DNA of 64,000 nucleotides, taken from assembly GCA_964559455.1 (NCBI GenBank), contig CAZLHO010000006.1, positions 17,627 through 81,626 on the forward strand, given 5' to 3'. Shown piece after piece: positions 2,360 to 58,878 of this stretch. This DNA comes from an uncultured Fibrobacteraceae bacterium. GTDB lineage: Bacteria; Krumholzibacteriota; Krumholzibacteriia; LZORAL124-64-63. Within the stretch, counting starts at the first letter, position 1, and every line of letters starts with the position of its first letter. The notes under the pieces were generated by a model. The model searched no databases and was not told the origin of the DNA. It worked only from the letters and a program-made list of their open reading frames with translations. A program made the position numbers and the translations under genes.

Positions 2360-2360
2360 C

Positions 2361-11621: not shown

Positions 11622-11665
11622 GGCTCCACCTCTGCGTCCCCGGGCGCGGCCCGGGGCGTCGTGAT

Positions 11666-37429: not shown

Positions 37430-37432
37430 GCC

Positions 37433-38350: not shown

Positions 38351-38438
38351 ATTTCCCCCTCCTCCGGTGATAGCATGGCCGCCGGCGCCGCGCCCTTTCC
38401 GCCGCGCCGCGCCCGTCTACCCGCTCGAGGAGGAAACG

Positions 38439-39657: not shown

Positions 39658-40593
39658 GTGAACGCCCGATCGATCCCGACCGTCTGCCTGGGCCTGGCGC
39701 TGCTCCTGGCCGCGCCCGCGTGCGCGCAGGACCAGACCGCCGGCTCCGGCGCCGAGGACGATCCCTTCGTCCTGGACGTCGACGAGCTGCTGAAACAGGG
39801 CTTCGGCCTGATCGTCGCCGCCGAGGACTCCATCCCCTTCGCCGACGGCACCGCCGACACCGTGCTGATCACGGCGCCGCGGGTGACCGTGGCCGAGGTC
39901 GTGCGCCGCATCGGCGAGCGCATGGAGCGCGAGAGCCTGGCCATGGGCCGCCACGCGTACACCACGCGCACCAACGTGGTCATGCGCAAGCACGGCGAGG
40001 TGAAAGAGGGCCGCCCCGTCGAGATCAAGGTGCTGGAGCAGGCCGACCGCGTCACCGAGAGCGAGGGCGCGATCCAGATCGCGACCCTGTGGAAGCGCGA
40101 GCGCAAGCTGAGCGACGGCGAGGTCGTGGACGAGAAGGTCGACGACGAGGTCAGCGCCGACTGGCAGGCCGTCGAGGAGGCCGCCGAGCAGGGCATGAAC
40201 GTGCCCTTCTCGCTGCTGACCGGCGACGCCTACGACTACGAGATCCAGGAGCGCGCCCTGATCGGCGAGCACCTGATCTACCGCGTGGGCTTCGCGCCCA
40301 AGACCGGCTTCCGCGCCGAGCCCACGGGCACCGTCTGGATCGACTACGGCGAGTACGTGATCCGGCGCATGGAGGGCCGCGTCGACGCCCCCTTCACCAT
40401 GCCGCCCATCCTGAAGGGCATCCCCGAGTTCCGGCTGCGGCAGGAGCAGGTCGACGGCTGGTGGGTGCCGGTCGAGATCTACCTGCGCGTCGAGCTGCGC
40501 CGCCTGCTGCCCGGGATCCCCGCCGAGATCGAGCTCTTCTGGCGCAGCGAGGACCACGAATTCGAGAACTCCGGCGGGGAGGTCGCGCGATGA
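39658..40593 (+). CDS. hypothetical secreted/periplasmic protein
   Basis: GTG start 39658 after a G-rich RBS. Signal peptide VNARSIPTVCLGLALLLAAPACA. Acidic ~310-aa protein. Its stop overlaps the next start. Confidence 0.45.
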   Translation: MNARSIPTVCLGLALLLAAPACAQDQTAGSGAEDDPFVLDVDELLKQGFGLIVAAEDSIPFADGTADTVLITAPRVTVAEVVRRIGERMERESLAMGRHAYTTRTNVVMRKHGEVKEGRPVEIKVLEQADRVTESEGAIQIATLWKRERKLSDGEVVDEKVDDEVSADWQAVEEAAEQGMNVPFSLLTGDAYDYEIQERALIGEHLIYRVGFAPKTGFRAEPTGTVWIDYGEYVIRRMEGRVDAPFTMPPILKGIPEFRLRQEQVDGWWVPVEIYLRVELRRLLPGIPAEIELFWRSEDHEFENSGGEVAR

Positions 40594-41969
40594 AGCGACT
40601 CGCCCTGGCCTGCCTGCTGATGCTCCCGACCCTGGCCGCCGCCCTGCCGCCCGCGCCGGCCGACTCGCTGCTGTGGGAGAGCGAGCAGGCGGCCATCGAC
40701 TCGCTGAACAGCTACTGGCGCACCCTGGACGCCGACTGGTACGACCCCCTGACCCCCGAGCTGCTGGACTTCGGGCTGGACGCCGCGCGCCTGGACTCGC
40801 TGACGGCGGTGGGCGACGTCCTGATCGGGCGGATCCTGTCGGGCCGCTACGTGAAGACCGATTTCCACCCCTTCGGCATGATGGCCTTCAACCGCACCGA
40901 GGGGCTGCGGCCGGGCGCGTCGCTGGAGTTCGTGCGCCCCGGCCCGGCGCCGGCGCGGCTCGAGATCGGGGCCGGCTACGGCATCGCCAGCGAACGTGTG
41001 GTGCACGAGCACGGGCTGGATCTGCCGCTGGCCGTGGCCCGCCCGCGCGACGACCGGGGCGCGCTGAAGCGCCGCCCCTGGCCCTGGCTGTCGCTGCGCG
41101 CCGAGGGGGGGCGCGCGACGAGGGCCTTCGGCGGCGAGCTGGGCCGCACCTGGGACATGTGGGCCTTCCTCTACGGCGAGGAGCCCAGCCAGTTCTACGA
41201 GGACGAGTTCTGGCGCGCCGGCCTGCGGCTGCGGCCCCGGCCGGAGCTGGCCCTGGAGCTGGGCGGCGGGCATCACGACGAGCGCCCGCGGCCGGTGGCC
41301 ACCCGCTGGACCCTGTTCGGCGAGGCGAGCGACGTGGACCCCAACCTGCAGGTGCCGGCGCTGACCGCCCGCGAGCTCTACGCCGGGCTGCGCTGGCGCC
41401 GCGGCCGCGTGGAGGCCGGGGCGCGGATGACCTGGCTGCGCGCCGCGGGCGACCAGGTGAACGCCCCCTGGGGGGCGACGGACGCGTTGTGGCACCGCCG
41501 GCTGCGGCTGGACGGCGCGGCGACCCTGATCGACCGCTGGGGCACCGAATACGCCCTGAAGGGGGTGTGGCGCACCGCCGACCGCCGCGCGCCCCCGCAG
41601 TGGCAGCTGTTCCTGGGCGACTACGGCACCCTGAGGGGCTTCGAGGCCCGCGAGCTGGCCGGCGACGAGGGCGGCCTGGCCACCCTGGACGTGCGCCTGG
41701 GCGCCGACCCCTTCCGCGCCCTGCGCGTGCCCCTGCTGAAGAGCTTCCGCCTGCAGCCCATCCTCTTCGCCGAATACGGCCGCGCCCTGCGCGCCGAGGG
41801 CCCCGGAGAGCCCTACGGGGCCACCGGCTGGCGGGCCGACGTGGGCTTCGGCTTCGGCAAGGCCATCGGCCTGCCCGGCGTGGGCGGCAACCTGCGCATG
41901 TACGTGGCCCGCCCGGTGGGCCCGGGCATGGGCGACTACAGCTGGCGGGTGACGGTGGGGGTGGAGTAG
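40590..41969 (+). CDS. hypothetical outer-membrane beta-barrel-like protein
   Basis: Signal peptide MKRLALACLLMLPTLAAA. Alternating aromatic/basic strand pattern (W/Y/R-rich). ATGA coupling with the upstream gene. Confidence 0.45.
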   Translation: MKRLALACLLMLPTLAAALPPAPADSLLWESEQAAIDSLNSYWRTLDADWYDPLTPELLDFGLDAARLDSLTAVGDVLIGRILSGRYVKTDFHPFGMMAFNRTEGLRPGASLEFVRPGPAPARLEIGAGYGIASERVVHEHGLDLPLAVARPRDDRGALKRRPWPWLSLRAEGGRATRAFGGELGRTWDMWAFLYGEEPSQFYEDEFWRAGLRLRPRPELALELGGGHHDERPRPVATRWTLFGEASDVDPNLQVPALTARELYAGLRWRRGRVEAGARMTWLRAAGDQVNAPWGATDALWHRRLRLDGAATLIDRWGTEYALKGVWRTADRRAPPQWQLFLGDYGTLRGFEARELAGDEGGLATLDVRLGADPFRALRVPLLKSFRLQPILFAEYGRALRAEGPGEPYGATGWRADVGFGFGKAIGLPGVGGNLRMYVARPVGPGMGDYSWRVTVGVE

Positions 41970-42297
41970 GGAAATCTTGAACTTGACGTATCGAAATTAT
42001 CGTGGAGAATCATAGCCGCGGGCCCGATGGTCTGCGGCTGTTTCCTATCTCCCGGACAGCGTCGATTCACAGAATTTATCTAGTCGGCTCAACACCATGT
42101 ACTAACGCATCTCCCAAGATTCAACGGACGTCAACTAGCGACTACAAATCAAGTTTCCCGGTCGAGATGGGGGGTCTGTGGCCAGCATTTCGCCGCCTAG
42201 CAATCCCTGCCTGAAAGCAAACGCAGGGGCTGGAAGTCGTTAAGTCTGAACGAGTAGTATTTCAATCCATGTAAGCCGCGCAGAAAGGTACTCGCCC

Positions 42298-44850
42298 ATG
42301 CACAACATTGATGCCGCGATTACAAACGATCTGATAACCCACCCAAAATCAGGGACCAGCGGCATGATGGAATGGCTGAGAAAGAAGATGTTCAATGAAG
42401 AATATGAAGAGGTCTTCGAAAAGCTTGAATCGATTCTGGGGACTAACCAAAATGAGCCTGAAGGTGCGGAGTCGTCCGGGCTGAAGATTGCGGATATGGT
42501 AATTTTGGCCGCGGAGGCACGGTATCTATCTGGAGGATTTCAGGCATGCTTGGAGATGATCGATAAATATACGGAATCTGGGCTGCTGGAAGCAGAAGAC
42601 GGTGCTGCAAATTTAATTCGGGGATGGGTCTTGACTCAATATGGCAGGCACAACGAGGCCATGGACATAGCAAAAGGAGGCCTGAAAAGAACGACACTTA
42701 CTTCCAAGCCCTTGCTTCATGGGCAGTATTTGCACCTGAGGGGGATGTGCCGACATAAATTGGGGGACAATGAGAATGCTTTGGATGATCTAAGGGATTC
42801 CCAGGCCTTGTTTCGGCAGACAGGGGATCGTTTTCGAGAAATGAACGCGCTGAACGCACTCGCGATTGTCGAATCACGAGCTTTCTCTCTTGAGGGAGCG
42901 TGCCGGCACCTTGAGCGCTCACTGAGAATTCTGCCGAATGGTATCGGAAACGGAAGAAAGATTCAGGCCCTGCTGAACCATGCCGTCATGTTGTTCAAGA
43001 GGGGGTTGATCAGACAGGCGGAAATCCAAATTACGGCCGCATTGGCAATTCGATCAGGCCACCGTCCCGAATTGCAACATGCTAGACTGAATATTCTGAA
43101 AGCAAGGATTGCCGTTCAAAACGGAGAGTTCACTGAAGCCATGGAATTACTCGAGAAGGTTCTCGAGTTCTCGATTCGAAACAAATTCGCAAGAGAGGAG
43201 GCCATGGTTCTGGAAACCATGGCCGATTTGTTTCTGGCCAAGAATGAAGTGCTGCAAGCGGAGAGATTGATATCGAGGACACAAGAAGTGGCCGCGTCCC
43301 ATGATATGGAGGTGGATTTTGCGTCAGGGGCTCATCGCCGACGCGGGCAAATCCACCTGGCAGCAGAAGATTATGGGGAGGCGCTGAAAGAATTCCGTGT
43401 TTCGCTTGAAAGGGCGTTACTCGACAACGATACCCTAGAGGAGGGGCTGGCAAGACGATATCTATCGACTTGTTATCGATGCATGAGCATGTACGGGAAG
43501 GCCTATGCGGAATGTCGCAGATCGGTTGATATATTTCAGAAGCACTGCGTCGAAATCGAACTAGGGCGGAGCTACCTCGAGGCCGCACGTATCCGGATTT
43601 GCTGGCATTCATATCAGGAACAGTTGGCAGAAGATGATGACCTAGGCTCAATCATCCAGACTGGATCACCCACGGCCCCGCGCGAGGAGTACCGGGACCA
43701 TATCGAGGCGGCATGGAGCTATTCAGTCGAAGCGAGGCATCTCTTCGATCTTCTCGGCAACGCCCCGGGAGCGACAGACTGTGAACAGGAAATGGATATG
43801 ATGCGAGCCATCAAAATGCCATCACTTTGTTGCTTGCCATTCAAAATTACTACTGTTGGTCGGACGTCGCATGAGGAGTTTCCAAGTAGGCCGGTTGGTG
43901 GCGGGGAGATGATTGCGGCCTCCCCGGCAATGAAAAATCTTCTTGCCCTTGTCGATGTGGCAGCGACGACTTGTGAGCCAGTATTGATCACCGGTGAGAC
44001 CGGGACGGGGAAGGAGTTGATTGCACGCAGGATCCACGGATTGAGCTCAAGAGCAAAATTTCACATCGTTCCTGTAAATTGCGCCGCGATTCCCGATACG
44101 CTATTCGAGCGCGAATTTTTTGGGCACTGCCGAGGGGCCTACACAGGGGCAGATTCGGAGGCCCCGGGTCTTTGTGAGCAGGCTGACCGAGGCACCTTGT
44201 TCCTCGACGAAATCGGAGACTTGCCGCTGGTTCTCCAGGCAAAATTGCTCAGGATCCTACAAGAAGGGACATACAGGAAGTTAGGGGATCCAAAGGAGTT
44301 GCATGCAGACCTTCGCTTGGTTGCGGCCACGAACGCCTCGCTGGAAGAATTGATGATTTCTGGGAAATTTCGGCGAGATCTCTATTACCGACTGCAGACA
44401 ATGGAAATTCATGTGCCACCTCTTCGCGAGCGCAAAGAGGATATCGACCCGCTGATAAGCCTGTTCATTAAAAAAGTGTATTCCCGCAATGTCGTGATCC
44501 ATGATGTAATATCCAGTGAAGTTCTGCAGGCCCTTCACCATTATCCGTGGCCGGGTAATATCAGGGAACTCGAGGCCATCGTCCGGCGCTTGGCTCATTT
44601 GGCTCGGCACAAGGGCCAGGCGACCTTGGCCATGCTCCCCGACCACATCGCTCACTGGTACGACCGCCCCTCGGCCGTCGCAGGCTCCCTGGACCTCGCC
44701 GCCCATCTCTCCCGGGCCGAGAACGCCCGCATCCGCCACGCCCTGCTCCTCTCGGGCGACAACCGCAGCCAGGCCGCCCGGGCCCTGGGCATCTCCCGCA
44801 ACACCCTCTACAAGAAGATGGAGAAGCTGGGCATCCCGGGGGCGGCCTGA
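42298..44850 (+). CDS. sigma-54-dependent transcriptional activator with a ~500-aa N-terminal TPR-like sensory domain instead of a receiver domain
   Basis: AAA+ sigma-54 interaction domain (GETGTGKE Walker A; GAYTGA in place of GAFTGA; DEIGDLP Walker B; RELE arginine finger). C-terminal Fis-type HTH (RSQAARALGISRNTLYKK). The N-terminus carries repeated helical TPR-like units. The gene body is ~50% GC against ~70% in the flanks. Confidence 0.85.
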   Translation: MHNIDAAITNDLITHPKSGTSGMMEWLRKKMFNEEYEEVFEKLESILGTNQNEPEGAESSGLKIADMVILAAEARYLSGGFQACLEMIDKYTESGLLEAEDGAANLIRGWVLTQYGRHNEAMDIAKGGLKRTTLTSKPLLHGQYLHLRGMCRHKLGDNENALDDLRDSQALFRQTGDRFREMNALNALAIVESRAFSLEGACRHLERSLRILPNGIGNGRKIQALLNHAVMLFKRGLIRQAEIQITAALAIRSGHRPELQHARLNILKARIAVQNGEFTEAMELLEKVLEFSIRNKFAREEAMVLETMADLFLAKNEVLQAERLISRTQEVAASHDMEVDFASGAHRRRGQIHLAAEDYGEALKEFRVSLERALLDNDTLEEGLARRYLSTCYRCMSMYGKAYAECRRSVDIFQKHCVEIELGRSYLEAARIRICWHSYQEQLAEDDDLGSIIQTGSPTAPREEYRDHIEAAWSYSVEARHLFDLLGNAPGATDCEQEMDMMRAIKMPSLCCLPFKITTVGRTSHEEFPSRPVGGGEMIAASPAMKNLLALVDVAATTCEPVLITGETGTGKELIARRIHGLSSRAKFHIVPVNCAAIPDTLFEREFFGHCRGAYTGADSEAPGLCEQADRGTLFLDEIGDLPLVLQAKLLRILQEGTYRKLGDPKELHADLRLVAATNASLEELMISGKFRRDLYYRLQTMEIHVPPLRERKEDIDPLISLFIKKVYSRNVVIHDVISSEVLQALHHYPWPGNIRELEAIVRRLAHLARHKGQATLAMLPDHIAHWYDRPSAVAGSLDLAAHLSRAENARIRHALLLSGDNRSQAARALGISRNTLYKKMEKLGIPGAA

Positions 44851-44943: not shown

Positions 44944-44958
44944 TGGCACTCTGCTAGC
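44944..44958 (+). promoter_or_regulatory. candidate sigma-54 (-24/-12) promoter element
   Basis: TGGCAC-tctgc-TAGC has the GG and GC dinucleotides at the canonical spacing (consensus TGGCACG-N4-TTGC). It lies 94 nt downstream of the activator gene and ~115 nt upstream of a small ORF. Confidence 0.3.
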
Positions 44959-45071: not shown

Positions 45072-45200
45072 ATGGGCAGGGCTTGCGTTCACCCATGGCG
45101 GCTGGTTGTAGTCTTCGTCCTGACTCTGCGGTTCTTCTTCGGCGTGCTTACGCTGCCACGCGTGGTCCCTGTGGCCTCGTCCCCGAAGCCGGCGCTCTAG
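45072..45200 (+). CDS. putative 42-aa single-TM small protein
   Basis: GGGGGAGGAG RBS. MGRACVHPWRLVVVFVLTLRFFFGVLTLPRVVPVASSPKPAL. Too short to appear in the ORF track. Confidence 0.25.
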   Translation: MGRACVHPWRLVVVFVLTLRFFFGVLTLPRVVPVASSPKPAL

Positions 45201-45311
45201 AGGGTTGAGCGTCGGCGCCCCGGTCGCTTCCGGAGGGCGACTCGCAGTCCGGCGGTTCCCACCGCCGGGGAAACCTCCGGGCCAAGGCCCGCGGCCCTGC
45301 CGGCACGATCG

Positions 45312-45338
45312 GCGGCCGCGGGCCGCTATTTTTTGCCC
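45312..45338 (+). terminator. intrinsic terminator (GC stem plus T-tract)
   Basis: GCGGCC-gcg-GGCCGC followed by TATTTTTTG. Confidence 0.4.
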
Positions 45339-45406: not shown

Positions 45407-46174
45407 ATGTCCCGCGCCCGTCTTCTCGTCCCCCTGGCCCTGCTGGCCGCGCTGCTGGCCGCAGGCTGCGACAACGGCGGCCCCGAGAGCGGTCCGTACA
45501 TCGCCGGCGTGGTCGTCGACGCCGCCGGCAAGCCCGTCGAGGGCGCTCGCCTGAACATCATCTACGCCTTCGAGATCATTCCCGCCGTCGATCGCGGCGG
45601 GGACGATCCGCCGCCGCCGCCGGTGCCCATGACCCTGCTCGGCCTGCCCAACCCCTTCGAGATCCAGGGCCTCGTCCGCTTCACCGTGCCGTTCCCGGGC
45701 ATGGTCCGGCTGCGGGTCCTCGACCACGAGGGCCGGCCGGTGCGCACGCTCGTCCTCGGAGAGCTGGTGGCTGGCGTCCACCAGATCGCCTGGTCGACCC
45801 TGGACGACGCGGGCGTCCCCTTGGCCAACGGCCTCTACGCGCTGGACCTCGTCCTGAGCGACGGCGAGCGCGAGGTCCCCATGACCTGGCCCTGGGTCTT
45901 CATCAACAACGTGGACGGGTCCATGCTGGCCGACGCCGCGCTGGACGTGACCGACCGCATCGGCCGCTTCCGCATCCCCTCCGGGGCCCTGCCGCTGGGC
46001 CGCGAGATCCCGCTCGTCGGCTCGGAGGGCCTGGATCGCGGCGAATTCACCGTCCGCTCCACGCTGCGGCTCTACGCCTTCGCCGGCGACGGGCCGGACT
46101 ACTCCAGCGCCATGGCCGAGCTGGTCCTGCCCGCGGACGGCGGCGGACGGCTGGTGCAGCTGGTCCTGGAGTGA
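45407..46174 (+). CDS. lipoprotein with a CarboxypepD_reg-like domain and an internal FlgD-Ig/T9SS-CTD-like beta-sandwich
   Basis: Lipobox LLAAGC. YIAGVVVDAAGKPVEGARLNI (carboxypeptidase-regulatory-like). LPNPFEIQGLVRFTVP...HQIAWSTLDDAGVPLANGLYALDL resembles the Por-secretion-tail / FlgD Ig-like domain. Confidence 0.55.
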   Translation: MSRARLLVPLALLAALLAAGCDNGGPESGPYIAGVVVDAAGKPVEGARLNIIYAFEIIPAVDRGGDDPPPPPVPMTLLGLPNPFEIQGLVRFTVPFPGMVRLRVLDHEGRPVRTLVLGELVAGVHQIAWSTLDDAGVPLANGLYALDLVLSDGEREVPMTWPWVFINNVDGSMLADAALDVTDRIGRFRIPSGALPLGREIPLVGSEGLDRGEFTVRSTLRLYAFAGDGPDYSSAMAELVLPADGGGRLVQLVLE

Positions 46175-46285
46175 GCGCCGCCCGGCGTGGTGGTGTATCC
46201 TATCCTGAGGAGCCGGAGGCGGCGGGGCCCCCGTCAGCCCCCTTCGAACGCCCGGACGCCGCCGTCGGATAATCAGACGCCACCG

Positions 46286-49200
46286 ATGAAACCGCGACCC
46301 GCACGTCTGCTCGCCCGTCTCCTGCCGCTGCTGACGGCGGCCGCGGCGTTCTGCGCCCAGCCCGCCTTCGCCGCGCCCCCCGACTACGTCCCCGATCAGG
46401 TCCTGGTCAAGTTCCGGCCCGCCGCCGCCCGCGCCGACCGCGAGGTCCTGCTGCGCGAGATCGGTGAATCGACCGTGCGCGAGCTGCGGCCCCTGGACGT
46501 GCAGGTCCTCCGCCTGGCCCCCGGCGCGGACGGCGCCGATCCCGTGCCGGCCGCCCTGGCCCGCTGGCGCGGCCATCCCCTGGTCGAGTACATCGAGCCC
46601 AACTGGATCCTGAGCGGCTGCGTCCTGCCCGACGACCCCCTGCTGCCCGACCAGTGGCACCTCTTCAACGACGGCGCCGACGGCGGCGTGGCCGGCGCCG
46701 ACGTGGGCGCGGCCCTGGGCTGGGACGTGGCCGTCGACGCCCGCCCGGTGGTCGTGGCCGTCCTGGACAGCGGCGTCGACTACACCCATCCCGACCTGGC
46801 GGCCAACATGTGGGACGGCGGACCCGGGTTGCCGCATCACGGCTGGGATGTCGTCGCCAACGACGACGACCCCATGGACGAGTACGGCCACGGCACCCAC
46901 GTCGCGGGCCTGATCGGCGCCGTCGGCGGCAACGGCCGCGGCGGGGCGGGGGTGTGCTGGAACGTGCGCCTGATGGCGATCCGCATCCTGGACGGGGCCA
47001 ACCGCGGCCGGCTGGACGACATCGTCCTCGGGGTCCTGCTGGCCGTCGGGTGGGGCGCCGACGTGCTGAACAACAGCTACGGCGACGCCGGCGAGTATTC
47101 GCAGACCTTCCGCGACGCCGTCGCCTACGCCGCGGACCGGGGGGTGCTCTTCGTGGCCGCCGCCGGCAACGACGCCGTCGACAACGACCTCGTCCCCTTC
47201 TATCCCGCCGACTACGACCTGCCCAACGTCGTCTCGGTGGGCGGCACAGACCGGCGGGACGAACTCGCCGAATGGTCGAACTACGGCGCAGCCTCGGTGG
47301 ACCTGGCCGCGCCCGGAGACGGGATCTTCAGCACCGGCTGGCCGGGCCACGGCTACCGGACGATCTCCGGCACCTCGATGGCGGCGCCGCAGGTCTCCGG
47401 GGCGGCCGCCCTGATCCGCGCGCGACATCCCGAGGTCGATCTGGACACCTGGCGGGCCTGGCTGCTGGCGGGCGCCGAGCCCCTGCCCTCCCTGCAGCGG
47501 CGCACCGTCACCGGCGGCCGGCTGGACCTGGGCCGGGCCCTGGCCGCGGCCGACCTGACGCCGCCGTCGCCGGTGGACGACCTGCGGGCCGAGGCCGTCT
47601 CGCCCTGGCGGGTGCTGCTGACCTGGACCGCGCCCGGCGACCTGGGGGGCCTGCCCGCGCCCGCCCGCTACGAGATCCGCCGTTCGGACGGCCCCCTGGA
47701 CGCCGCGAACTTCGACGCGGCGATCCTCGTGCCCGCGCCGCCGACTCCATCGGCGGCCGGAGCGCCCGAGACCCTTTCGGTGGGCGGGCTGGAGCCGGGG
47801 GCGACCCTGAGCTTCGCCCTGCGGGCGATCGACGCCGCGGGCAATGCCGCGCCCCTGTCCAACGTCGTCACGGCCTTGACTCCCCCGGCGGCCTCGCTGC
47901 AGGTCTCCGGCCCCGACCTGGCGGCCGACCTGCCGACCGGGACCGCCCGCGAGTTCCCGCTCGTCGTCCGCAATCCCGGCCCCGGTCCCATGGCCTGGGT
48001 GGTCCGCGCGGTCGGCTTCCCCGCCGTATCCGCTTCCGAGGCCGCGCCCTCTTCTTCCTCGCGCCCGGCCGCGTCGGCGCCGCGACCGCGCGCATCCGTC
48101 TCCGTGGACCGCCTGCGGCTGCGCACACCCGGGGCCGCGCCGGCGGATCTGGTCGCGCTGGCCGAGGGCGCGGGGGTGGGACTGGTCTTCAGCGACGACG
48201 TCGAATCCGGTCCCGGCGGCTGGACCGGCGACGGCGACGGCTTCGCGCTGTGGAACCTGAGCCGCGACGCCTACGGCAGCCCCTTCGTCTCCTGGCGCTG
48301 CGGCTTCGCCGGGACGGGCTACGCCACGGGCGACAGCGTGGACGCGGCGCTGGTCTCGCCGACGATCGACCTCGGGCGGGTCGACGGGACGGCAACCCTG
48401 GAGTTCCTGGAGTGGTTCGTCACCGAACCCGACCGCGACTTCTGCCGCGTCGAGGCGGCCGCGCCCGGCGACCCGTCGTGGACGCCGCTGCGCGCGCCCG
48501 TCTCGGGCGACGGCGGTGGCTGGGCCCTGCGCGCTCTGGACCTGACGCCCTGGGTCGGCGGTCCGGTGCGCGTCCGCTTCCGCCTGACCGCGGCCGACGC
48601 CCTGGTCAACGACCTGCCCGGCTGGTTCGTGGACGACGTGCGCGTGGTCGCGGGGGGCTGCTCCTGGCTCGTCCCCGATCGGAACTCGGGCCTGCTGGCG
48701 GCGGGCGCCGTCGACACGCTGCGCGTGCGGCTGGACGCGGGCGGCCTCTGTGGCGGCCGGCGCTACGGCCAGCTCGAGTTCGCGTTCGCCGACCCCGACG
48801 CGCCGGCCGTCCTGCTGCCCGCCGCCCTCGACGTGAGCGCGGCCCCCGATCTGGACCTGGACGCGGCCGCTCTGGACCTGGGCCCCGTCTTCGTCGGCGC
48901 CGAGCGGCGCGCCTTCGTCACGGTCACCAACGCCGGCTGCCTGGATCTGGTCGTGACGGGGGTCGAGTCCGAGGGCGAGGGCTTCGCGACGACCGACGGG
49001 TCGGCGTTCTCGTTGCCGCCCGGCGGCGCGCGCGCCCTCGATGTGGTCTTCGCGCCGATTGTGCCCGGGGCGGCGGCCGGAGCCTTGCGGCTGTTCTCGA
49101 CCGACCCCGACGCCTCGATCACGGCGCTGCCCCTGTCCGGCGCAGGACTGGAGCCTCCGTTCCCCGTCCTGGTCGATCCGGAGCCCGGATGCTCCGCCGT

Positions 49201-51373
49201 GTCGAGCGCGATCGTCGATCCCGGGGTCCTGCTGCGCAACGACGGCGCCTCGCCGCTGCGCTGGAGCCTGGCCGGGCCGCTGCCGCCCGAGCCCGAGGGC
49301 GTCCTGCCGGCCCCGCCGCCGCCGCCGGCCGTGGGCGAGGACCTGCGCGGGCGCCGCATCCTGTGGCTGCGCCGCCACAGCGAGATGCCGTCTTTGGGCA
49401 GCATCCGCTTCGTGGAGGATATGCGCGACCGGGGGGCCGAGGTGGTCGAGACCTCGGCGGTGGTCACGGCCGAGCTGCTGGCCGGCGCCGACCTGGCCCT
49501 GGTCGTGGGCGGCAGCCTCTGGAACGCCGTCGAGCGCGACGCCCTGGCCGTCTGGCTGCGCGGGGGCGGCGGCCTACTGATCGTGGCGCGGCTGCAGTCG
49601 AGCATCGCGGCGGCCAACGACATCCTGGGCGCGGCCGGGGCCGGGCTGGGCTACGGCTGGCCCGGCGGCGTCGTCGGCCCGGGCGAGCCTGTGACCTCGC
49701 ATGCCGTGCTGGCCGGCGTCCGCGACATCGAGCTGTCCCAGAACGACGGCTGGCTCGCGGTGGACTGGCCCGGCCGGCCCCTGCTGCGCGATCCCGGCGG
49801 CAGGCTGGCCGCGGCGATCTCCCTGCCGGGCCGCGGCCGCATCGTGGCCCTGGCTTCGCTGACGCCCCTGGACTTCGCCATCGACGCCGGCGACAACCGG
49901 CGCTTCATGAACAACATCGTCGACTGGCTGTCGGCGCGCTGGCTGCGCGCGACGGCGCTCGAGGGGGTCGTGCCCGCCGGCGACGCCGTCGTCCTGCCGC
50001 TGCGCGTGGATACCGGCGGCCTGGTCGCCGGCGCGCACGTCGACACCCTCGTCCTGCACACCAACGCCCCGGACGCGCCGACGCTGCCCTTGCCCGTGCG
50101 GGTGGACGTCCGCGGCGTGCCGAAGCTGGTGGTGGACGGACTGAACCTGGAGGACGAGGTTGTGGACTTCGGCCCGGCCGGACTCGACGAGGCGCTGGAT
50201 CGCGATCTGGTCCTGCGCAACCACGGCACCGGCGACCTGCACCTGCTGGACCTGGCCGCGGACGGCGCCGGTTTCGGGATAGCGCTGCGGGATCCGGCCC
50301 CCGTGCTCGCCCCCGGCGACAGCGTCACGGCGACGCTGCGCTTCCGCCCCGAAGTCCTGGGGCCGCATCTGGGAGGCCTGGAGCTGGGCACCGACGACCC
50401 GCGTCTGCTCCGGCGCCGGATCTGGCTCTCGGGCTTGGGGTTGACGCCGGCGCAGATCGCCGTCGGACCCGACTCGCTCGTCGCCGAGCTCTACACCGCC
50501 GGCATCTCCCGCATCCTGCTGACCTTCACGAACACGGGCGGGGCGCCGCTGCGCCTGACGCTGGCGCCCACCGTCGCCTGGATCATCCCCCAGGCCACGA
50601 CCCTCGACGTGCCCGGGGGCGAGGCGCGCCAGCTCTACGCAGCGATCTACGCCTACGAGATGGGGGACGGCGACTACACGGGCGCCCTGCGGATCGGCAC
50701 CAACGTGCCCGAAAGGCCGGTCGTCGTCCTGCCGGCCCGCCTGCGCGTTTTCAACGCGCCCGACCTGGTCGTGGTCCCTTCCTTCGTGGAGTTTCCGCCG
50801 ACGATGATCTACGAAGAGGCCTACGAGCACGTCTACCTGCAGAACCATGGCTCGGTGCGGCTGGACATCGAGTGGCCGCCCCAGGTCGATTCGCCCTATC
50901 TCGAGGTTCTGGGTCCCGACGTTCCCTACATGTGGGTCCCGCCGGGCGAGGCCATGGTCTTCTACCTGCGCTACCGCCCGCTGGAGCCCGACATCCTGGA
51001 CGCCGTCATGCGCATCCGCAGCAACGACCCCTACGAGCCCGTGGTCGAGGTTCTGGTCAGCGGCGAAACAATCTACCGGCCGCAGAAGGAAGGTCCCGAG
51101 AAGCTGGTCAACGTCCCCAACCCCTTCAACCCGCTCACGGAGCTGCGCTTCACGCTGCCCGCCGCGGGCCGCGCCGAGGTGCGGATCTACGATCTCAGGG
51201 GAAGGCTGGTGCGCCGGCTGGACGCGGGCGCGCGCCCGGAGGGGCCGGGCGCGCTGAGCTGGGACGGCCGGGGCGACGACGGGGCGTCGGCCTCCAGCGG
51301 GACCTACCTGGCGCGGCTGCTGCTCGACGGCCGTCCCCTGGGCGAGCCCCGCCGCATGAAGCTGCTGCGCTGA
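46286..51373 (+). CDS. giant secreted subtilisin-like serine protease (peptidase S8) with multiple ASH / choice-of-anchor-D-like Ig domains, a ThuA/GATase1-like insert and a T9SS-type C-terminal sorting domain
   Basis: Start ATG 46286 (MKPRPARLLARLLPLLTAAAAFCAQPAFA). I9-like propeptide (VLVKFRPAAARADREVLLREIG). Catalytic triad motifs AVLDSGVDYTHPDL, HGTHVAGLIGAVGGNG and GTSMAAPQVSGAAAL. C-terminus NVPNPFNPLTELRFTLP...SWDGRGDDGASASSGTYLARL matches the Por_Secre_tail pattern. Confidence 0.85.
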   Translation: MKPRPARLLARLLPLLTAAAAFCAQPAFAAPPDYVPDQVLVKFRPAAARADREVLLREIGESTVRELRPLDVQVLRLAPGADGADPVPAALARWRGHPLVEYIEPNWILSGCVLPDDPLLPDQWHLFNDGADGGVAGADVGAALGWDVAVDARPVVVAVLDSGVDYTHPDLAANMWDGGPGLPHHGWDVVANDDDPMDEYGHGTHVAGLIGAVGGNGRGGAGVCWNVRLMAIRILDGANRGRLDDIVLGVLLAVGWGADVLNNSYGDAGEYSQTFRDAVAYAADRGVLFVAAAGNDAVDNDLVPFYPADYDLPNVVSVGGTDRRDELAEWSNYGAASVDLAAPGDGIFSTGWPGHGYRTISGTSMAAPQVSGAAALIRARHPEVDLDTWRAWLLAGAEPLPSLQRRTVTGGRLDLGRALAAADLTPPSPVDDLRAEAVSPWRVLLTWTAPGDLGGLPAPARYEIRRSDGPLDAANFDAAILVPAPPTPSAAGAPETLSVGGLEPGATLSFALRAIDAAGNAAPLSNVVTALTPPAASLQVSGPDLAADLPTGTAREFPLVVRNPGPGPMAWVVRAVGFPAVSASEAAPSSSSRPAASAPRPRASVSVDRLRLRTPGAAPADLVALAEGAGVGLVFSDDVESGPGGWTGDGDGFALWNLSRDAYGSPFVSWRCGFAGTGYATGDSVDAALVSPTIDLGRVDGTATLEFLEWFVTEPDRDFCRVEAAAPGDPSWTPLRAPVSGDGGGWALRALDLTPWVGGPVRVRFRLTAADALVNDLPGWFVDDVRVVAGGCSWLVPDRNSGLLAAGAVDTLRVRLDAGGLCGGRRYGQLEFAFADPDAPAVLLPAALDVSAAPDLDLDAAALDLGPVFVGAERRAFVTVTNAGCLDLVVTGVESEGEGFATTDGSAFSLPPGGARALDVVFAPIVPGAAAGALRLFSTDPDASITALPLSGAGLEPPFPVLVDPEPGCSAVSSAIVDPGVLLRNDGASPLRWSLAGPLPPEPEGVLPAPPPPPAVGEDLRGRRILWLRRHSEMPSLGSIRFVEDMRDRGAEVVETSAVVTAELLAGADLALVVGGSLWNAVERDALAVWLRGGGGLLIVARLQSSIAAANDILGAAGAGLGYGWPGGVVGPGEPVTSHAVLAGVRDIELSQNDGWLAVDWPGRPLLRDPGGRLAAAISLPGRGRIVALASLTPLDFAIDAGDNRRFMNNIVDWLSARWLRATALEGVVPAGDAVVLPLRVDTGGLVAGAHVDTLVLHTNAPDAPTLPLPVRVDVRGVPKLVVDGLNLEDEVVDFGPAGLDEALDRDLVLRNHGTGDLHLLDLAADGAGFGIALRDPAPVLAPGDSVTATLRFRPEVLGPHLGGLELGTDDPRLLRRRIWLSGLGLTPAQIAVGPDSLVAELYTAGISRILLTFTNTGGAPLRLTLAPTVAWIIPQATTLDVPGGEARQLYAAIYAYEMGDGDYTGALRIGTNVPERPVVVLPARLRVFNAPDLVVVPSFVEFPPTMIYEEAYEHVYLQNHGSVRLDIEWPPQVDSPYLEVLGPDVPYMWVPPGEAMVFYLRYRPLEPDILDAVMRIRSNDPYEPVVEVLVSGETIYRPQKEGPEKLVNVPNPFNPLTELRFTLPAAGRAEVRIYDLRGRLVRRLDAGARPEGPGALSWDGRGDDGASASSGTYLARLLLDGRPLGEPRRMKLLR

Positions 51374-51385
51374 TCCGTCGACGGG

Positions 51386-52699
51386 TCAGGACGACGGATC
51401 CAGCACCCTCCCGAAGAAGAGCAGCGCGCCGGTGCCCCGGTCGCGGATCCCCACCAGGAAGGGCCGGTCCACCACGACCTGGCTCGGTATCGACGTGATG
51501 TCGATGACGATGGCCGTCGCCGCGGCCGCCTCCACGCCCTTCTCGTCCACGGCCAGGAAAGTCTTGTGGTAGGCCTCGCTGATGAACAGCCGGACGTCGC
51601 TGATGCCCCCGAAGTCGGCCGCCGTCGTGAAGGGCAGCGGCATGCCCAGTTCGCTCAACGGCGTTTTGAGCCTGCAGCCGGCCTCCATCGTGAACCGGGG
51701 CATGGTCACGTCCACGCGGCTGCTGCCGAGTTCGTCGAGGATCGCCTCGAGGGCGTCGGCGTCCAGGTCCGCCTCGAAGGCTGCGAACTCGCCGGCGTCG
51801 GGCACGATCATCAGGAAGCCCAGCTCCTCGCCGCGCAGGTGCAGTTCGACCGCCTGCCAGCCGGGGCCCTCGGCCGCCAGGCAGCCCATCGACGTGTTCA
51901 TCATCGGCACGGTCACCTCGCCGCCGCCCAGCAGGTGGAACGTTCCGTCCGACGTGCCCTCGGGCGAAAAGGCGTCCGCCCACGGCGCCTTCAGGTAGAG
52001 GGCGTTGGCCAGCACGGCGCGGGTGGCCGGCGAGATCGACCCCGGCGGCAGCAGGTCCAGGATGCGGTCGCGGGTGCGCTCGGCGACCCAGCCGTTGATT
52101 GCTTCGCGGCCGACCTCGGGGGCGTTCTCGAAGTCCAGCCCGTAGGCGGCGGCGCCGTAGTTCACGGCCAGCAGATCCAGCCACGGGTCCAGGAAGGGGA
52201 AGCCGATCTGGCCCCAGAGCGAGTTGGCCGTCGACAGCTCGACCGCTTCCTCTTCGCCGGTGGCGGGCAGGTTGCGGGCGGCCAGGGCCAGGTCCAGGGC
52301 GTTGAAGGCGGCGTGGCGCCGGCCGGCGGGCAGCAGATCGTAGTGCAGGACCGCGGCGATCTGCTCGGCCGTCTCGCCCAGGGCGCCGCCGTAGGCCATG
52401 GCGAAGGCCGTACGGATGCTCAGCGGCGAGAAGAGCAGGTTGCCCGGCTCATCGCCGCGCAGCTCGTGGTACAGGTCCACGGCGAAGGCGTGGTTGCCGG
52501 CGGCCAGGGCGTCGATCTCGGCGGGGGTGGCGTCGGGCGCGGTCTCGCGCTCCAGGTCCGAGCTGTAGGTCTCCCAGGCGTCGTCGATCGGGTCGGGCCG
52601 GGTGCCGTCGTCGTCGCAGCCGACGGCCAGGATCAGCGCCAAGCACAGGAAGACAGCCGCCGCCGGCGCGGTCCGGGGCGCGAGCAGATTCGAGAACAT
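51386..52699 (-). CDS. serpin-family serine protease inhibitor, lipoprotein
   Basis: Lipobox LAVGC. Serpin hinge and reactive-centre loop EKGVEAAAATAIVIDITSIPSQ. ~437 aa. Convergent with the S8 protease, with stops 12 bp apart. Confidence 0.8.
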   Translation of the reverse strand: MFSNLLAPRTAPAAAVFLCLALILAVGCDDDGTRPDPIDDAWETYSSDLERETAPDATPAEIDALAAGNHAFAVDLYHELRGDEPGNLLFSPLSIRTAFAMAYGGALGETAEQIAAVLHYDLLPAGRRHAAFNALDLALAARNLPATGEEEAVELSTANSLWGQIGFPFLDPWLDLLAVNYGAAAYGLDFENAPEVGREAINGWVAERTRDRILDLLPPGSISPATRAVLANALYLKAPWADAFSPEGTSDGTFHLLGGGEVTVPMMNTSMGCLAAEGPGWQAVELHLRGEELGFLMIVPDAGEFAAFEADLDADALEAILDELGSSRVDVTMPRFTMEAGCRLKTPLSELGMPLPFTTAADFGGISDVRLFISEAYHKTFLAVDEKGVEAAAATAIVIDITSIPSQVVVDRPFLVGIRDRGTGALLFFGRVLDPSS

Positions 52700-52814: not shown

Positions 52815-53381
52815 TCAGCGATACAGGGTCTTGACCCGGGACCACGTCGCGTCGCCGACGGGGATCGGGCCGAGCTCCACGGTCAGGGTGTTGTTCGTCT
52901 CATCATATTCGGGAATCTGGAGGTCCGTGTCTATGGACAAGGTGATGTTCTGCTGCCCGGTGAAGGCGTGCCAGATGCTGCCCTCTCCGTAGGTGTACCA
53001 GCGGCAGGCGCAGCGGTAGACCAGGGGCGTGGACGTGACCAGCTCGTCGTAGCACGAGCCGAAGTAGGTCACGGCGCCGAAAACGAGGTCGTAGCACTCG
53101 CCGTCGCAGTCGGGATACGCATTCAGGGGGCAGGATCCAGAATCGAAGGGCACGATGACGTAGGGGATCTGCTCGACCAGGCCGCCGTCGATGTACACGT
53201 CGATGGTGGTGTTGATCGCGGGCACGGGGCCGACGGCCGTCACGACGATCGTGGGCACGACCTGGAAGGCGTTGCCCGAGGACACGAGTTCGACGTCGAA
53301 GAGTTCGAGGTCGACGTCTTGGGCCGCGGCGGAGCCCGCCATCAGGCTCGCCGCGACGATCAACATGAGCAATTTCTTCAT
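52815..53381 (-). CDS. secreted CARDB-domain protein
   Basis: Start ATG 53381 (MKKLLMLIVAASLMAGSAAA) with a CAGGAG RBS. CARDB-like C-terminal signature ...EYDETNNTLTVEL. Lower GC than the surroundings. Confidence 0.55.
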   Translation of the reverse strand: MKKLLMLIVAASLMAGSAAAQDVDLELFDVELVSSGNAFQVVPTIVVTAVGPVPAINTTIDVYIDGGLVEQIPYVIVPFDSGSCPLNAYPDCDGECYDLVFGAVTYFGSCYDELVTSTPLVYRCACRWYTYGEGSIWHAFTGQQNITLSIDTDLQIPEYDETNNTLTVELGPIPVGDATWSRVKTLYR

Positions 53382-56100: not shown

Positions 56101-58773
56101 ATGCGGATCTTCCCTCGTTCACGCCCCCGAGTCCTTCTGACCCTCTGCGGGGCCCTGATGTCCTGCGTCTTCGCCGTCGGCGCCCGGGCCGCCGTCGTCG
56201 CCACGGCCGATATCGTGAAGGCCGTGCGCATGGACGCCCCGGTGCGCGTCGACGGCCGGCTGGACGAACCGTCCTGGCGCGGGCCGTCCGCCGCGCCTTT
56301 CATCCAGAACGAGCCGGACAACGGCGCGGCCCCGAGGCTGCGCACCGACTGGTGGATCGGCTACGACGACGAGAACCTCTATGCGGCCTTCCGGATGCAC
56401 GACGCCGCGCCCGACTCCATCGTCGCCCGCCTGGGACGGCGCGACAGCGACACGCGGTCGGACTACGTGCGCATCGACCTCGACACCTTCAACGACGACC
56501 GCAGCGGCTTCGCCTTCTCGGTCAACGCCGCCGGCTCGATCTACGACGCTGTCTTCTTCAACGCCGGCGAGGACGACGCCTCCTGGGACGGCGTCTGGGA
56601 CTGCGCCACGCGGGTGGACGAACGGGGCTGGACCGCCGAGATGCGCATCCCCTTCTCGCAGTTGCGCTTTCCCGAGGGTGCGGAGCAGCGCTGGGGCGTG
56701 AACGTGACCCGCTACGTGCAGCGCTACGAGGGTCGCGACGATCTCTGCCTGCGCCCGCGCGACGACAGCTCCTTCCCCAGCCGCTACCCCGACCTGGTGG
56801 GAATCACGGGCGTGCGGCCGGGCAAGGCGATCGAGGCGCTGGTCTACGCCACGGGGCGGGCGTCGTTCCTCGAGACAGCTCCGGGAGATCCCTTCGACGA
56901 CGGCTCCGAATACGATGCGGACGCCGGCCTGGACCTGAAGTGGAACCTGTCCAGCGACCTGACGCTGAACGCCGCGCTGAACCCGGACTTCGGCCAGGTG
57001 GAGGTCGATCCGGCCGTGGTGAACCTGAGCGACGCCGAGACCTTCTTCGAGGAGCGCCGGCCCTTCTTCGTCGAGGGCGGCGGCATCTTCCGCTACGGCC
57101 GCGACGGCACCAGCAGCAACTGGAACTTCGACTGGTCGGACCCCCGGCTCTTCTACAGTCGGCGCATCGGCCGGTCGCCGAGCCTGCCGCTGGAAGAGCA
57201 CGACTACGCCGACAGGCCGGGCTTCACGACCATCCTGGGCGCGGCCAAGCTGACCGGGCATGCGGGCGACACCTCGCTGGGCGTGCTCCACGCCGTGACG
57301 GCCGAGGAAAGCGCCGCTCTCTGGCTGGGCGGAGAGACCCGCGACCAGATCGTCGAGCCCCTGACCAACTATACCGCCGCCCGGCTGCGCCGCGACTTGG
57401 ACAGCGGCGCGATCGGCCTGATGGCCACCAGCGTGCAGCGCGAACGGCCCACAGGCCTGTCGCGCGCCCTGCTGCCGCAGCGGGCCTACTCGGCGGGCCT
57501 GGACGGCTGGACCTTCCTGGGGGAGGACCGCGGCTGGGCGGTGCGAGGCTACCTGGCGGGCAGCCGGATCAGCGGCGACGCGGCGGCCATCGACCGCGTG
57601 CAGCGCAGCTCCCGCCACTACATGGACCGCCCCGACATGGACTACCTGGACTACGACCCCGACCGCACCAGCCTGGACGGCTGGGCCGGGCGCGCGGTGC
57701 TGAACAAGGAGCGGGGCAGCTTGACCTTCAACGCCTCGCTGGGAGCCGTCTCGCCGGGCTTCGACGTGGCCGAGGTGGGCTTCCTGAACTGGTCCGACCT
57801 GGTGAACCGCAGCGTCGCCGTCGGCCACCGCTGGCTCGAGCCGCGCGGGGTCTTGCGCAACCTTTCGCTGACCTACACCCACTTCCAGAACTGGGATTTC
57901 GACGGCCGACCCATCGAGAACGGCTCGGGCGTCTTCGGCAACGCCACCTTCAGCAACTACTGGACCTTCCAGGGGCAGTGGATGTACATGCCGGACCGCT
58001 ATTCTCCCCGGGTCACCCGCGGCGGCCCTCTGATGCGCCTGCCCAAGGTCTGGACCAGCTTCCTCACCCTGGTCTCGGACCAGCGCAGGCCGCTGGCCGT
58101 CGGCGCCTGGCTGTCGCGCTGGAGCTGCGTCGACGACAGCGAGAGCACGAGCGGCGGCATCGAGTTCGTGGTGCGGCCCGGCCCGTCGCTGCGCCTGTCG
58201 ATCGAGCCGCAGATCGTGTGGCACAAGGAGGTCGTGCAGTGGGTGGGCGCCTTCGCCGATCCCGCGGCCACGCAGACCTTCGGCGGCCGCTACGTCTTCA
58301 GCGACATGGAGTACCGCGAGTTCAGCCTGCCGTTGCGCGTGGACTGGACCTTCACGCCGCGGCTGACGCTGCAGGGGTACGTGCAGCCGCTATTCGCCTC
58401 GGCGGACTACCGGCAGTTCAAGGAATTCGAGAAGCCCGGCACCTACGACTTCACGGTCTACGGCCGCGAGGGCGGCTCGACGATCGCCTATGACGAGTCC
58501 GCACGCTCCATCGTCGTCGATCCCGACGGCGCCGGCGCGGCGGAACCCTTCGCCTTCAACGACCCCGATTTCAACTTCAAGTCGCTGAAGGTGAACATGG
58601 TCCTGCGCTGGGAGTACCACGCGGGTTCGACCTTCTACCTGGTCTGGACGCAGGATCGGATGAACCTGGACGACCCCGGCGATTTCCGGTTGGGCCGCGA
58701 CACGCGCTCGCTCCTGGACGCCCCCGGCGACGACATCGTGATGATCAAACTGACCCGCTGGCTGGATTTTTAG
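56101..58773 (+). CDS. DUF5916-family protein with an N-terminal CBM9-like (DOMON-like) carbohydrate-binding domain, outer-membrane associated
   Basis: Signal peptide. CBM9-like N-domain (VDGRLDEPSWRG...WWIGYDDENLYAAFRMHD). Conserved central NPDFGQVEVDPAVVNLSDAETFFEERRPFF. OMP-like C-terminus ending ...RWLDF. Confidence 0.65.
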   Translation: MRIFPRSRPRVLLTLCGALMSCVFAVGARAAVVATADIVKAVRMDAPVRVDGRLDEPSWRGPSAAPFIQNEPDNGAAPRLRTDWWIGYDDENLYAAFRMHDAAPDSIVARLGRRDSDTRSDYVRIDLDTFNDDRSGFAFSVNAAGSIYDAVFFNAGEDDASWDGVWDCATRVDERGWTAEMRIPFSQLRFPEGAEQRWGVNVTRYVQRYEGRDDLCLRPRDDSSFPSRYPDLVGITGVRPGKAIEALVYATGRASFLETAPGDPFDDGSEYDADAGLDLKWNLSSDLTLNAALNPDFGQVEVDPAVVNLSDAETFFEERRPFFVEGGGIFRYGRDGTSSNWNFDWSDPRLFYSRRIGRSPSLPLEEHDYADRPGFTTILGAAKLTGHAGDTSLGVLHAVTAEESAALWLGGETRDQIVEPLTNYTAARLRRDLDSGAIGLMATSVQRERPTGLSRALLPQRAYSAGLDGWTFLGEDRGWAVRGYLAGSRISGDAAAIDRVQRSSRHYMDRPDMDYLDYDPDRTSLDGWAGRAVLNKERGSLTFNASLGAVSPGFDVAEVGFLNWSDLVNRSVAVGHRWLEPRGVLRNLSLTYTHFQNWDFDGRPIENGSGVFGNATFSNYWTFQGQWMYMPDRYSPRVTRGGPLMRLPKVWTSFLTLVSDQRRPLAVGAWLSRWSCVDDSESTSGGIEFVVRPGPSLRLSIEPQIVWHKEVVQWVGAFADPAATQTFGGRYVFSDMEYREFSLPLRVDWTFTPRLTLQGYVQPLFASADYRQFKEFEKPGTYDFTVYGREGGSTIAYDESARSIVVDPDGAGAAEPFAFNDPDFNFKSLKVNMVLRWEYHAGSTFYLVWTQDRMNLDDPGDFRLGRDTRSLLDAPGDDIVMIKLTRWLDF

Positions 58774-58878
58774 ATGAGGGGTTCAACCAAATCGCGCCGA
58801 CGGATGTCTCATGGTATGTGGAGCCACCTGCATTTGCCTGCCTCGGTGGTCGTCCCTACCCGCGAAAGAGAGAGAACG

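Follow-up and report, generated by a model that had tools for sequence, protein, structure and literature searches.

A multidomain S8 subtilase and a lipoprotein serpin encoded tail to tail in an Eisenbacteria-like bacterium are probably independent proteins made neighbours by a lineage-specific insertion

In a stretch of 64,000 nucleotides from an uncultured bacterium (contig CAZLHO010000006.1; hereafter the window), the gene of a large S8 subtilase and the gene of a serpin with a lipoprotein signal converge, with only 12 nt between their stop codons (Table 1). The original prediction had placed the end of the lipobox serpin 12 bp from the protease stop on the opposite strand, which the coordinates bear out, and had read this arrangement as a dedicated serpin/subtilase pair, which our comparison of loci does not support. 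Judged by its sequence, each protein adds a new member to a known and very large family. We consider it probable that the two are independent of one another, each an ordinary envelope or extracellular protein of an Eisenbacteria-like bacterium of the Fibrobacteres–Chlorobi–Bacteroidetes (FCB) superphylum, and that they became adjacent via a lineage-specific insertion. The window has a G+C content of ~72%, and the nearest named relatives of both proteins come from Candidatus Eisenbacteria and allied FCB-group phyla. The open reading frame (ORF) of the protease begins with ATG, while a longer frame from a GTG at 46187 is possible, and both proteins are called identically on several independent assemblies of the metagenome series MUDA16-1 (the protease again with 1695 amino acids (aa)), in which the contig reaches 87–88 kb (ENA ERZ23495300 scaffold_38). 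Since the two genes are convergent, they are not co-transcribed. A perfect 9-bp inverted repeat overlaps both stop codons, its RNA folding at -19.7 and -23.4 kcal/mol on the two strands, and is a possible shared bidirectional stem-loop terminator that lacks a U-tract.

The comparison covered 80 genome loci, taken from among the matches listed, with serpin homologues of 35–51% identity and up to 10 kb of flank, together with eight further metagenome loci, six of which are of the Eisenbacteria type; a separate scan of metagenome contigs with the serpin returned just two distant loci. Because the serpins of the 80 genome loci are mostly non-Eisenbacteria, these loci provide a wide negative control and do not test the pairing inside the clade. 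A tblastn search with the S8 catalytic domain, which detected the protease of the window as a positive control, found no such domain near the serpin homologue in any of the 80 genome loci, nor in any of the 8 metagenome loci, and the gene lists around the closest serpins (P0005, P0006, P0018, P0002, P0004, P0019 and P0014) likewise contain no S8 protease. With no instance in ~90 other serpin loci, the S8–serpin adjacency looks like nothing beyond chance expectation. The two S8 homologues that match the protease of the window in architecture and length (P0159 and P0162) share a conserved neighbourhood of their own, which contains no serpin.

The nearest syntenic relative (serpin P0005, loci L088 and L089) indicates how the adjacency may have arisen. 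Its serpin is 53% identical to that of the window by tblastn (55–56% in other comparisons), and synteny extends to both sides, with tblastn matches to the window genes at 37430–38350, 38301–39020 and 39613–40593 (w307, w240 and w327), to the sigma-54 activator, a bacterial enhancer-binding protein, to the serpin and to a DUF5916 gene. The flanking genes are 42–68% identical, the activator 37%, and a radical-SAM/CofH gene is also common to both according to the Pfam gene list. Between activator and serpin, L088 and L089 carry one gene of 179 aa at the place where the window has the protease and, upstream of it, a 255-aa lipoprotein; both of the latter are missing from the syntenic relatives. 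In two further loci, L098 and L099, the order is w189, serpin and a 179-like gene. No remnant of the relatives' 179-aa gene was found in the window. The simplest history compatible with these gene orders is an insertion or replacement in the lineage of the window, in which a lipoprotein–S8 cassette would have displaced the 179-aa gene located between sigma-54 regulator and serpin. The conserved neighbour of the serpin is, on the same comparison, not the protease but a small Cys-rich secreted protein of 188 aa on its other side, whose orthologues are 49–50% identical and hold the same position in L098 (94–663) and L099 (208–777). Serpin and 188/189-aa protein thus represent, by gene order, a two-gene unit conserved in three different organisms, and it is with this neighbour that the serpin would belong.

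The protease itself is an ordinary member of its family. As the original prediction had it, the 1695-aa protein carries a propeptide ahead of an S8 domain, and PF22148 and PF00082 both score above cutoff. The signal peptide reads as signal peptidase I type and contains no lipobox. PF00082 matches residues 155–397 with 182.5 bits against a gathering score of 21.8 (expectation value (E) 1.4e-53), and the catalytic residues follow in the order D161 (VLDSGVD), H202 (HGTHVAG) and S364 (GTSMAAP), with N295 (AAAGNDA) at the oxyanion position. By score and triad, the protein is thus assigned to S8 with a catalytic apparatus that appears intact. The family is very large, with 3897 homologues at E<=1e-10 among 8000 scored candidates, whose source names include Eisenbacteria, Krumholzibacteria and Marinimicrobia and which share the set of modules. 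The solved structure closest to the catalytic domain is the collagenolytic subtilase deseasin MCP-01 (3vv3_A, E 1e-66), and the protein resembles MCP-01 and fervidolysin in this domain, in its fervidolysin-type propeptide and in the possession of C-terminal beta-sandwich accessory domains. It differs from both in being much longer (1695 aa) and in carrying, where those enzymes have PPC/PKD domains, choice-of-anchor-D/ASH Ig-like, MAM-like and GATase1-like modules and a FlgD_ig tail. The Ig-like repeat array proposed originally broadly holds, but only two Ig-like units exceed curated thresholds, the fn3-like and MAM-type modules staying below theirs: unit 1 reaches 45 bits with PF22544 (cutoff 25.5) and 37.5 bits with PF15780 (cutoff 27), and the choice-of-anchor D model NF012200 scores 61.3 bits against a cutoff of 45 over two stretches of the protease.

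The predicted insert resembling ThuA and class-I glutamine amidotransferases holds up at the level of the fold. It spans ~195 aa, contains the LALVVGG...GGGGLLIV stretch on which that proposal was based, and does not reach the gathering score of PF14258 (DUF4350; 25.1 bits against 30.4, E 2.4e-5). An AlphaFold (AF2) model, computed with 15 module copies in the alignment, has a pLDDT of 88.5 and a pTM of 0.86, and Foldseek relates it at E 3e-10 to 3e-6 and a probability of 1.0 to IFT52-N/GIFT, ThuA-like and GATase1-like structures. The best match is IFT52-N (E 2.8e-10, TM 0.64–0.69), ThuA-like and GATase1-like structures follow at E ~2e-6, and the matches with a probability of 1.0 include ThuA-like 4jqs and 4pxy, GATase1-like 3rht and the GATase domains of GMP synthases. 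The model thus gives the insert a GATase1-like three-layer alpha/beta fold, and this predicted fold, together with the weak DUF4350 match, is what it shares with the DUF4350/GIFT (IFT52-N, GldG)/ThuA-like branch. True amidotransferases possess a Cys-His-Glu triad. Since residues 1024–1216 contain no Cys at all (the Cys residues of the protease are at positions 23, 112, 224, 672, 720, 792, 822, 885 and 969), the insert lacks the nucleophile and is not an amidotransferase. The module recurs in 25 of the 120 listed S8 relatives, in 1–3 copies each, and these copies conserve a polar set D...H...D...E-G-D...H, suggestive of a site for binding or catalysis. In the copy of the window, which departs from its branch also in this respect, the acidic positions (D, D and E-G-D) are occupied by L, G and V-A-R. 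Because most of the polar residues are lost, any ligand-binding or catalytic function of this copy is probably degenerate.

On the opposite strand, the serpin is likewise complete, and its description as a lipobox serpin with an intact inhibitory hinge proved accurate. PF00079 covers residues 68–435 with 317.4 bits against 27 (E 1.8e-94; model positions 2–370 of 370), and its structure matches include antithrombin (E 4e-57) and the bacterial I4 serpin 8gxv (E 1.3e-54). A moderate match (E 7.8e-43), weaker than these two, is 5ncs, listed merely as 'Serpin', which we take to be miropin of Tannerella forsythia. The signal peptide ends in LILAVG-C28; aligned relatives retain this Cys at a level of at least 90%, and 103 of the 120 listed relatives have a motif resembling a lipobox. 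The serpin's hinge, EKGVEAAAATA with Val at P14, belongs to the inhibitory type, and E390–A394 as well as T395 are invariant in 32 aligned relatives. The family is very large (4697 homologues at E<=1e-20), and lipobox Cys and hinge are conserved in it. From these features, the protein is predicted to be a lipid-anchored inhibitor competent for the serpin mechanism. Its predicted P1 residue T402 and P1' residue S403 (..IVIDIT↓SIP..) align with R393–S394 of antithrombin, P1 lying 17 residues after the P17 Glu. Of 118 relatives, 62 have Thr at P1 and 18 have Ser there, with a hydrophobic residue at P4. Since P1 Thr with P1' Ser is the commonest combination in the family, the loop displays no adaptation to the neighbouring protease.

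This loop is nevertheless compatible with inhibition of an S8 enzyme, because Pnserpin, for which Val, likewise beta-branched, is predicted at P1, inhibits both subtilisin Carlsberg and proteinase K at ~1e5 M-1 s-1, and prokaryotic serpins with small beta-branched P1 residues inhibit subtilisins (PMC5297747). Pnserpin and Tk-serpin resemble the serpin of the window as prokaryotic serpins acting on subtilisin-type enzymes, but they are soluble proteins of thermophilic archaea that were tested in vitro, and no adjacency to a subtilase gene is involved. Another comparison is miropin, a surface-exposed, broad-spectrum serpin whose targets include subtilisin among many other enzymes (bioRxiv 10.1101/2025.09.05.674453). 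Both proteins are serpins with a lipoprotein signal and an inhibitory hinge from an organism of the FCB superphylum, neither stands in an operon with a specific protease, and both are plausible general guards of the envelope; their loops differ (..IDIT↓SIP in the window, -VKT- in miropin). The mature N-terminus CDDDG resembles an acidic signal for lipoprotein surface export known in Bacteroidota (PMC5080379). As a trait of the serpin family this signal was rejected, as only 16 of the 103 lipobox-bearing relatives have at least two D/E at positions +2 to +5. Since an acidic start is not family-wide, CDDD is only a weak hint of surface exposure.

How the protease would leave the cell depends on its last ~90 residues, which the original prediction had classified as a C-terminal domain (CTD) of the T9SS (type IX secretion system). 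Layout (PNPFNP...IYD..G..V..L...WDG...SGTY...RRMKLLR-COOH) and position resemble those of a type-A CTD, which likewise comprises ~80–90 aa at the extreme C-terminus with the motif order PNPF..., G-x-Y (as G(V/I)Y) and a terminal K-x-x-L-L-(K/R) strand, but the tail stays below the cutoffs of both curated T9SS models (TIGR04183, 19.3 bits against 23, E 8e-4; PF18962, 16.2 against 27) and is better described by the FlgD_ig model PF13860. One may hence argue that it is a structural Ig-like module of the FlgD type without a role in secretion and that the enzyme is periplasmic or exported otherwise. Such a module also occurs internally in the neighbouring 255-aa lipoprotein, no T9SS gene is present in the 64-kb window or in the 10 kb past its right end (~74 kb in total, the added part carrying genes for aromatic amino-acid and tryptophan biosynthesis), and a literature search found no paper linking Eisenbacteria with T9SS. 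We nevertheless consider a purely structural tail unlikely. Of the 120 best S8 homologues, 85 carry a homologous tail at their very C-terminus irrespective of the upstream architecture, which differs widely, and the tail therefore behaves like a sorting domain; K or R closes the sequence in 73 of these 85, and PF18962 registers in the tails of at least 13 S8 relatives. The best non-flagellar matches of the tail are the C-termini of PorU, PorZ and T9SS-dependent peptidase models, and it aligns weakly to TIGR04183 and to the CTDs of PorU and PorZ. T9SS has been reported in several FCB phyla besides Bacteroidota, the last strand and last residues of its CTDs together with a conserved Lys matter for secretion, and CTDs are not interchangeable even among Bacteroidota species (PMC11285876). 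The protease would most likely cross the outer membrane by a route resembling T9SS.

In the reading that we prefer, the protease would be exported by Sec as a zymogen kept latent by its propeptide, after which the C-terminal beta-sandwich would direct it across the outer membrane, with the fn3, MAM, choice-of-anchor-D Ig-like and GATase1-like modules acting as spacers or as parts that bind substrate or surface. It may then serve as an extracellular, CTD-sorted enzyme that degrades proteins for nutrient scavenging. The serpin, by analogy to miropin, may guard the envelope generally against serine and possibly cysteine proteases, own or foreign, without being tailored to the adjacent S8 enzyme.

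A dedicated pair would instead make the serpin the cognate inhibitor that traps prematurely active protease in the periplasm or at the surface of the cell, and the two would correspond functionally, with a serpin as inhibitor, to the potempin/KLIKK-peptidase pairs of Tannerella forsythia. Potempins, lipoproteins of the outer membrane that inhibit T9SS proteases and among them the S8 protease mirolase, provide a precedent for such an arrangement (PMC9890683). As in the pair PotC–mirolase, a T9SS-type protease is encoded beside an outer-membrane lipoprotein inhibitor, and the proposed logic of protecting the producer's own envelope is the same. However, potempin genes lie immediately upstream of, and are co-transcribed with, the gene of their KLIKK peptidase (PMC9890683), while the serpin gene is convergent with the protease gene, not upstream of it, and the pairing is not conserved in relatives. 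Potempins are moreover peptidase-specific non-serpins of 98–132 aa with a standard or other mechanism, whereas the serpin has 437 aa and is of the suicide-substrate type. The 12 bp between the stops with the shared hairpin, the export of both proteins, the lipid anchor with its CDDD start (PMC5080379), the inhibitory hinge and the inhibition of subtilisins by prokaryotic serpins with a small beta-branched P1 (PMC5297747) and by miropin (bioRxiv 10.1101/2025.09.05.674453) are all in keeping with a pair, yet the adjacency recurs in none of the ~90 other serpin loci and in neither of the two loci of architecture-matched S8 proteases, the reactive-centre loop is family-typical and the protease brings an inhibitory propeptide of its own, so that we regard a dedicated pair as improbable.

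A different partner for the protease would be the 255-aa lipoprotein encoded upstream, which would be co-transcribed with it and might inhibit it in the manner of a potempin, anchor it to the surface or help it by recognising the CTD. Its position on the same strand 111 bp ahead of the protease corresponds to the gene order of potempins and KLIKK peptidases (PMC9890683), the two genes are present or absent together when compared with the syntenic relatives, and the lipobox protein contains an internal, non-terminal CTD-like FlgD_ig domain that is 35% identical to the tail of the protease (E 3e-12) and constitutes the sole other match to the CTD profile in the window. However, a word search in 5.8 billion proteins returned no homologue but the protein itself, so that conservation permits no inference about this orphan; it has no similarity to known inhibitor families, and the S8 homologues P0159 and P0162 have unrelated genes upstream. 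We therefore give this partnership only a slim chance. Just as doubtful appears to us an intermediate scenario, in which a newly inserted T9SS-type protease landed beside a resident surface lipoprotein serpin and both now form a working pair, the serpin trapping enzyme that becomes active on or under the outer membrane and the orphan lipoprotein acting as a third component (anchor or CTD decoy).

Several observations weigh against two independent proteins made adjacent by insertion. Only ~9 distinct serpin loci of the Eisenbacteria type were examined, several of them on short contigs, and the 12 bp between the stops together with the shared hairpin could reflect selection for linkage in this lineage. 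The T9SS machinery is unseen in the ~74 kb and the tail lies below the curated thresholds, which leaves the export route unproven. In a further locus, L100, the serpin P0019 lies within ~1–3 kb of two C25 (gingipain-family) peptidases that flank it (2298–4721 and 10195–12660) and end in FlgD_ig/Por_Secre_tail tails, which hints that serpins of this group may tend to adjoin secreted proteases. Miropin is said to inhibit the C25 enzyme Kgp. Since CTD proteins are abundant in these genomes, the proximity in L100 carries little weight. If the pair were dedicated, it would represent a rare bacterial use of a serpin to control the cell's own secreted subtilase, and the principle that outer membranes are protected from T9SS proteases by a lipoprotein inhibitor, to our knowledge known only from Tannerella, would extend to an uncultured phylum; a pair formed in this lineage after insertion would be a counterpart of the potempin/KLIKK system that is based on a serpin and evolved independently. 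That two genes adjoin in one genome is, though, weak evidence for a functional pair.

Two by-products of the comparison are possibly more useful, namely the conserved pair of serpin and Cys-rich protein and a strongly conserved C-terminal tag. The 188-aa protein has six invariant Cys residues, and its family is small, with 75 representatives found at E<=1e-3 among 1.84 billion proteins. A function could not be derived from its fold, since the model reveals no more than a beta-sandwich of the CARDB type (E 0.02 for the best Foldseek match) and no resemblance to an inhibitor. The protein ends in WSRVKTLYR-COOH, and nearly all full-length members of this ~190-aa family end in (S/T)-W-x-x-[IVL]-K-x-[LM]-Y-R-COOH, with W180 invariant and K184, Y187 and R188 at least 90% conserved. 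In the form W-[SGT]-x-[IVLM]-K-x-[LMI]-[YF]-R-stop, the tag follows a loose linker on several unrelated proteins with signal peptides in loci of the Eisenbacteria type. Near serpins, it is carried by the 179-aa protein of L088 and by two genes of the locus L090, one of which encodes a beta-helix protein; a third L090 gene (9510–9536) has the motif 6 residues short of its stop. The 80 non-Eisenbacteria loci contain no tag save one chance match that closes a 40-aa ORF in L053, and serpins and S8 homologues do not carry it themselves. The tag has no NCBIfam match, a literature search found no description of it, and it is predicted with low confidence to fold into a short helix at the terminus. 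Possibly it represents a signal for sorting or anchoring that has not yet been described.

Table 1. Sequence features of the S8–serpin region (window coordinates unless a locus is named; stop codons are included in gene coordinates; arrows mark predicted cleavage sites)
Feature	Position	Strand	Basis
S8 subtilase gene, 1695 aa	46286..51373	+	translation; Peptidase_S8 E 1.4e-53
Sec signal peptide, aa 1-29 (MKPRPARLL...AQPAFA↓AP)	46286..46372	+	translation; cleavage site inferred
Fervidolysin-type N-terminal propeptide, aa 30-106	46373..46603	+	PF22148 44.1 bits, cutoff 21
S8 catalytic domain, aa 116-426	46631..47563	+	PF00082; deseasin MCP-01 alignment; motifs
fn3-like module, aa 428-529, sub-threshold	47567..47872	+	PF00041 18.5 bits vs 25
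InhA-like MAM-type module, aa 682-795, marginally sub-threshold	48329..48670	+	PF20773 26.4 bits vs 26.9 (segment alone)
Choice-of-anchor D/HYDIN-VesB/ASH Ig-like unit 1, aa 852-942	48839..49111	+	NF012200, PF22544, PF15780
Predicted GATase1-like (DUF4350/GIFT/ThuA-like) insert, aa ~1024-1216	49355..49933	+	PF14258; AF2 model; Foldseek
HYDIN-VesB Ig-like unit 2, aa ~1286-1371	50141..50398	+	PF22544 26.0 bits vs 25.5 (segment alone); NF012200 second stretch
C-terminal sorting-type domain (FlgD_ig), aa 1606-1695	51101..51370	+	PF13860 47.8 bits vs 27
Perfect 9-bp inverted repeat GATCCGTCG / CGACGGATC	51372-51380 / 51392-51400	both	sequence
Serpin gene, 437 aa	51386..52699	-	PF00079 E 1.8e-94
Serpin reactive-centre loop, E386 (P17) to P405 (P3'), EKGVEAAAATAIVIDIT↓SIP	51485..51544	-	hinge count and antithrombin alignment
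Serpin lipobox A-V-G-C28, mature N-terminus CDDDG	52616..52627	-	translation; alignment
Secreted 6-Cys CARDB-like protein, 188 aa	52815..53381	-	115 bp upstream of serpin, same strand
C-terminal tag	window 52818-52844; L098 634-660; L099 748-774; L088 6555-6581; L090 9510-9536, 10631-10657, 12561-12587	- (window)	
Orphan lipoprotein, 255 aa, lipobox	45407..46174	+	111 bp upstream of S8, same strand
Sigma-54 -24/-12-like site TGGCACtctgcTaGC	44944-44958	+	94 bp past activator stop

The sigma-54-like site that follows the activator gene was considered as a means of controlling the protease and rejected, as the window contains 5 sites with one mismatch against 3.4 expected by chance and a good intrinsic terminator (45311–45337) lies between this site and the start of the 255-aa lipoprotein. 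The site is followed by a 42-codon hydrophobic ORF (45072–45200, +) and then by the terminator-like hairpin with its T-run (+), and this arrangement could be a small sigma-54-dependent transcript. The activator gene itself is unusual in its composition. A stretch of ~50% G+C (~41950–44550), within a contig of 72% G+C, covers the first ~750 codons of this 850-aa ORF (42298–44850), which combines tetratricopeptide repeats with a sigma-54 activator, while its last ~100 codons are back to 61–70%. The activator of the syntenic relative has a normal G+C content (70%) and is, as mentioned, less similar than the flanking genes, and the gene callers of the source contigs called only the last 149 aa of the activator. 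The low-GC stretch may be explained either by an in-frame xenologous replacement or by a chimeric assembly. An rRNA or tRNA as its cause was dismissed, since Rfam and ARAGORN gave no match in the window and the stretch corresponds to the 5' three quarters of the activator gene.

Beyond the serpin, two tandem paralogous DUF5916 genes (56101–58773 and 58774–61605, +) are present, the second of which includes a CBM9 domain; the syntenic relative has a single DUF5916 gene, 64% identical to the second gene of the window. At the other end, positions 1484–25601 hold a dense cluster for haem biosynthesis (HemE, HemN-like, ferrochelatase, HemY-like oxidase and HemC) with multihaem cytochromes, one of which has 11 paired-CXXCH repeats (9642–11702), and an NHL-repeat protein. 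The gene content of this cluster suggests extracellular or periplasmic electron transfer.

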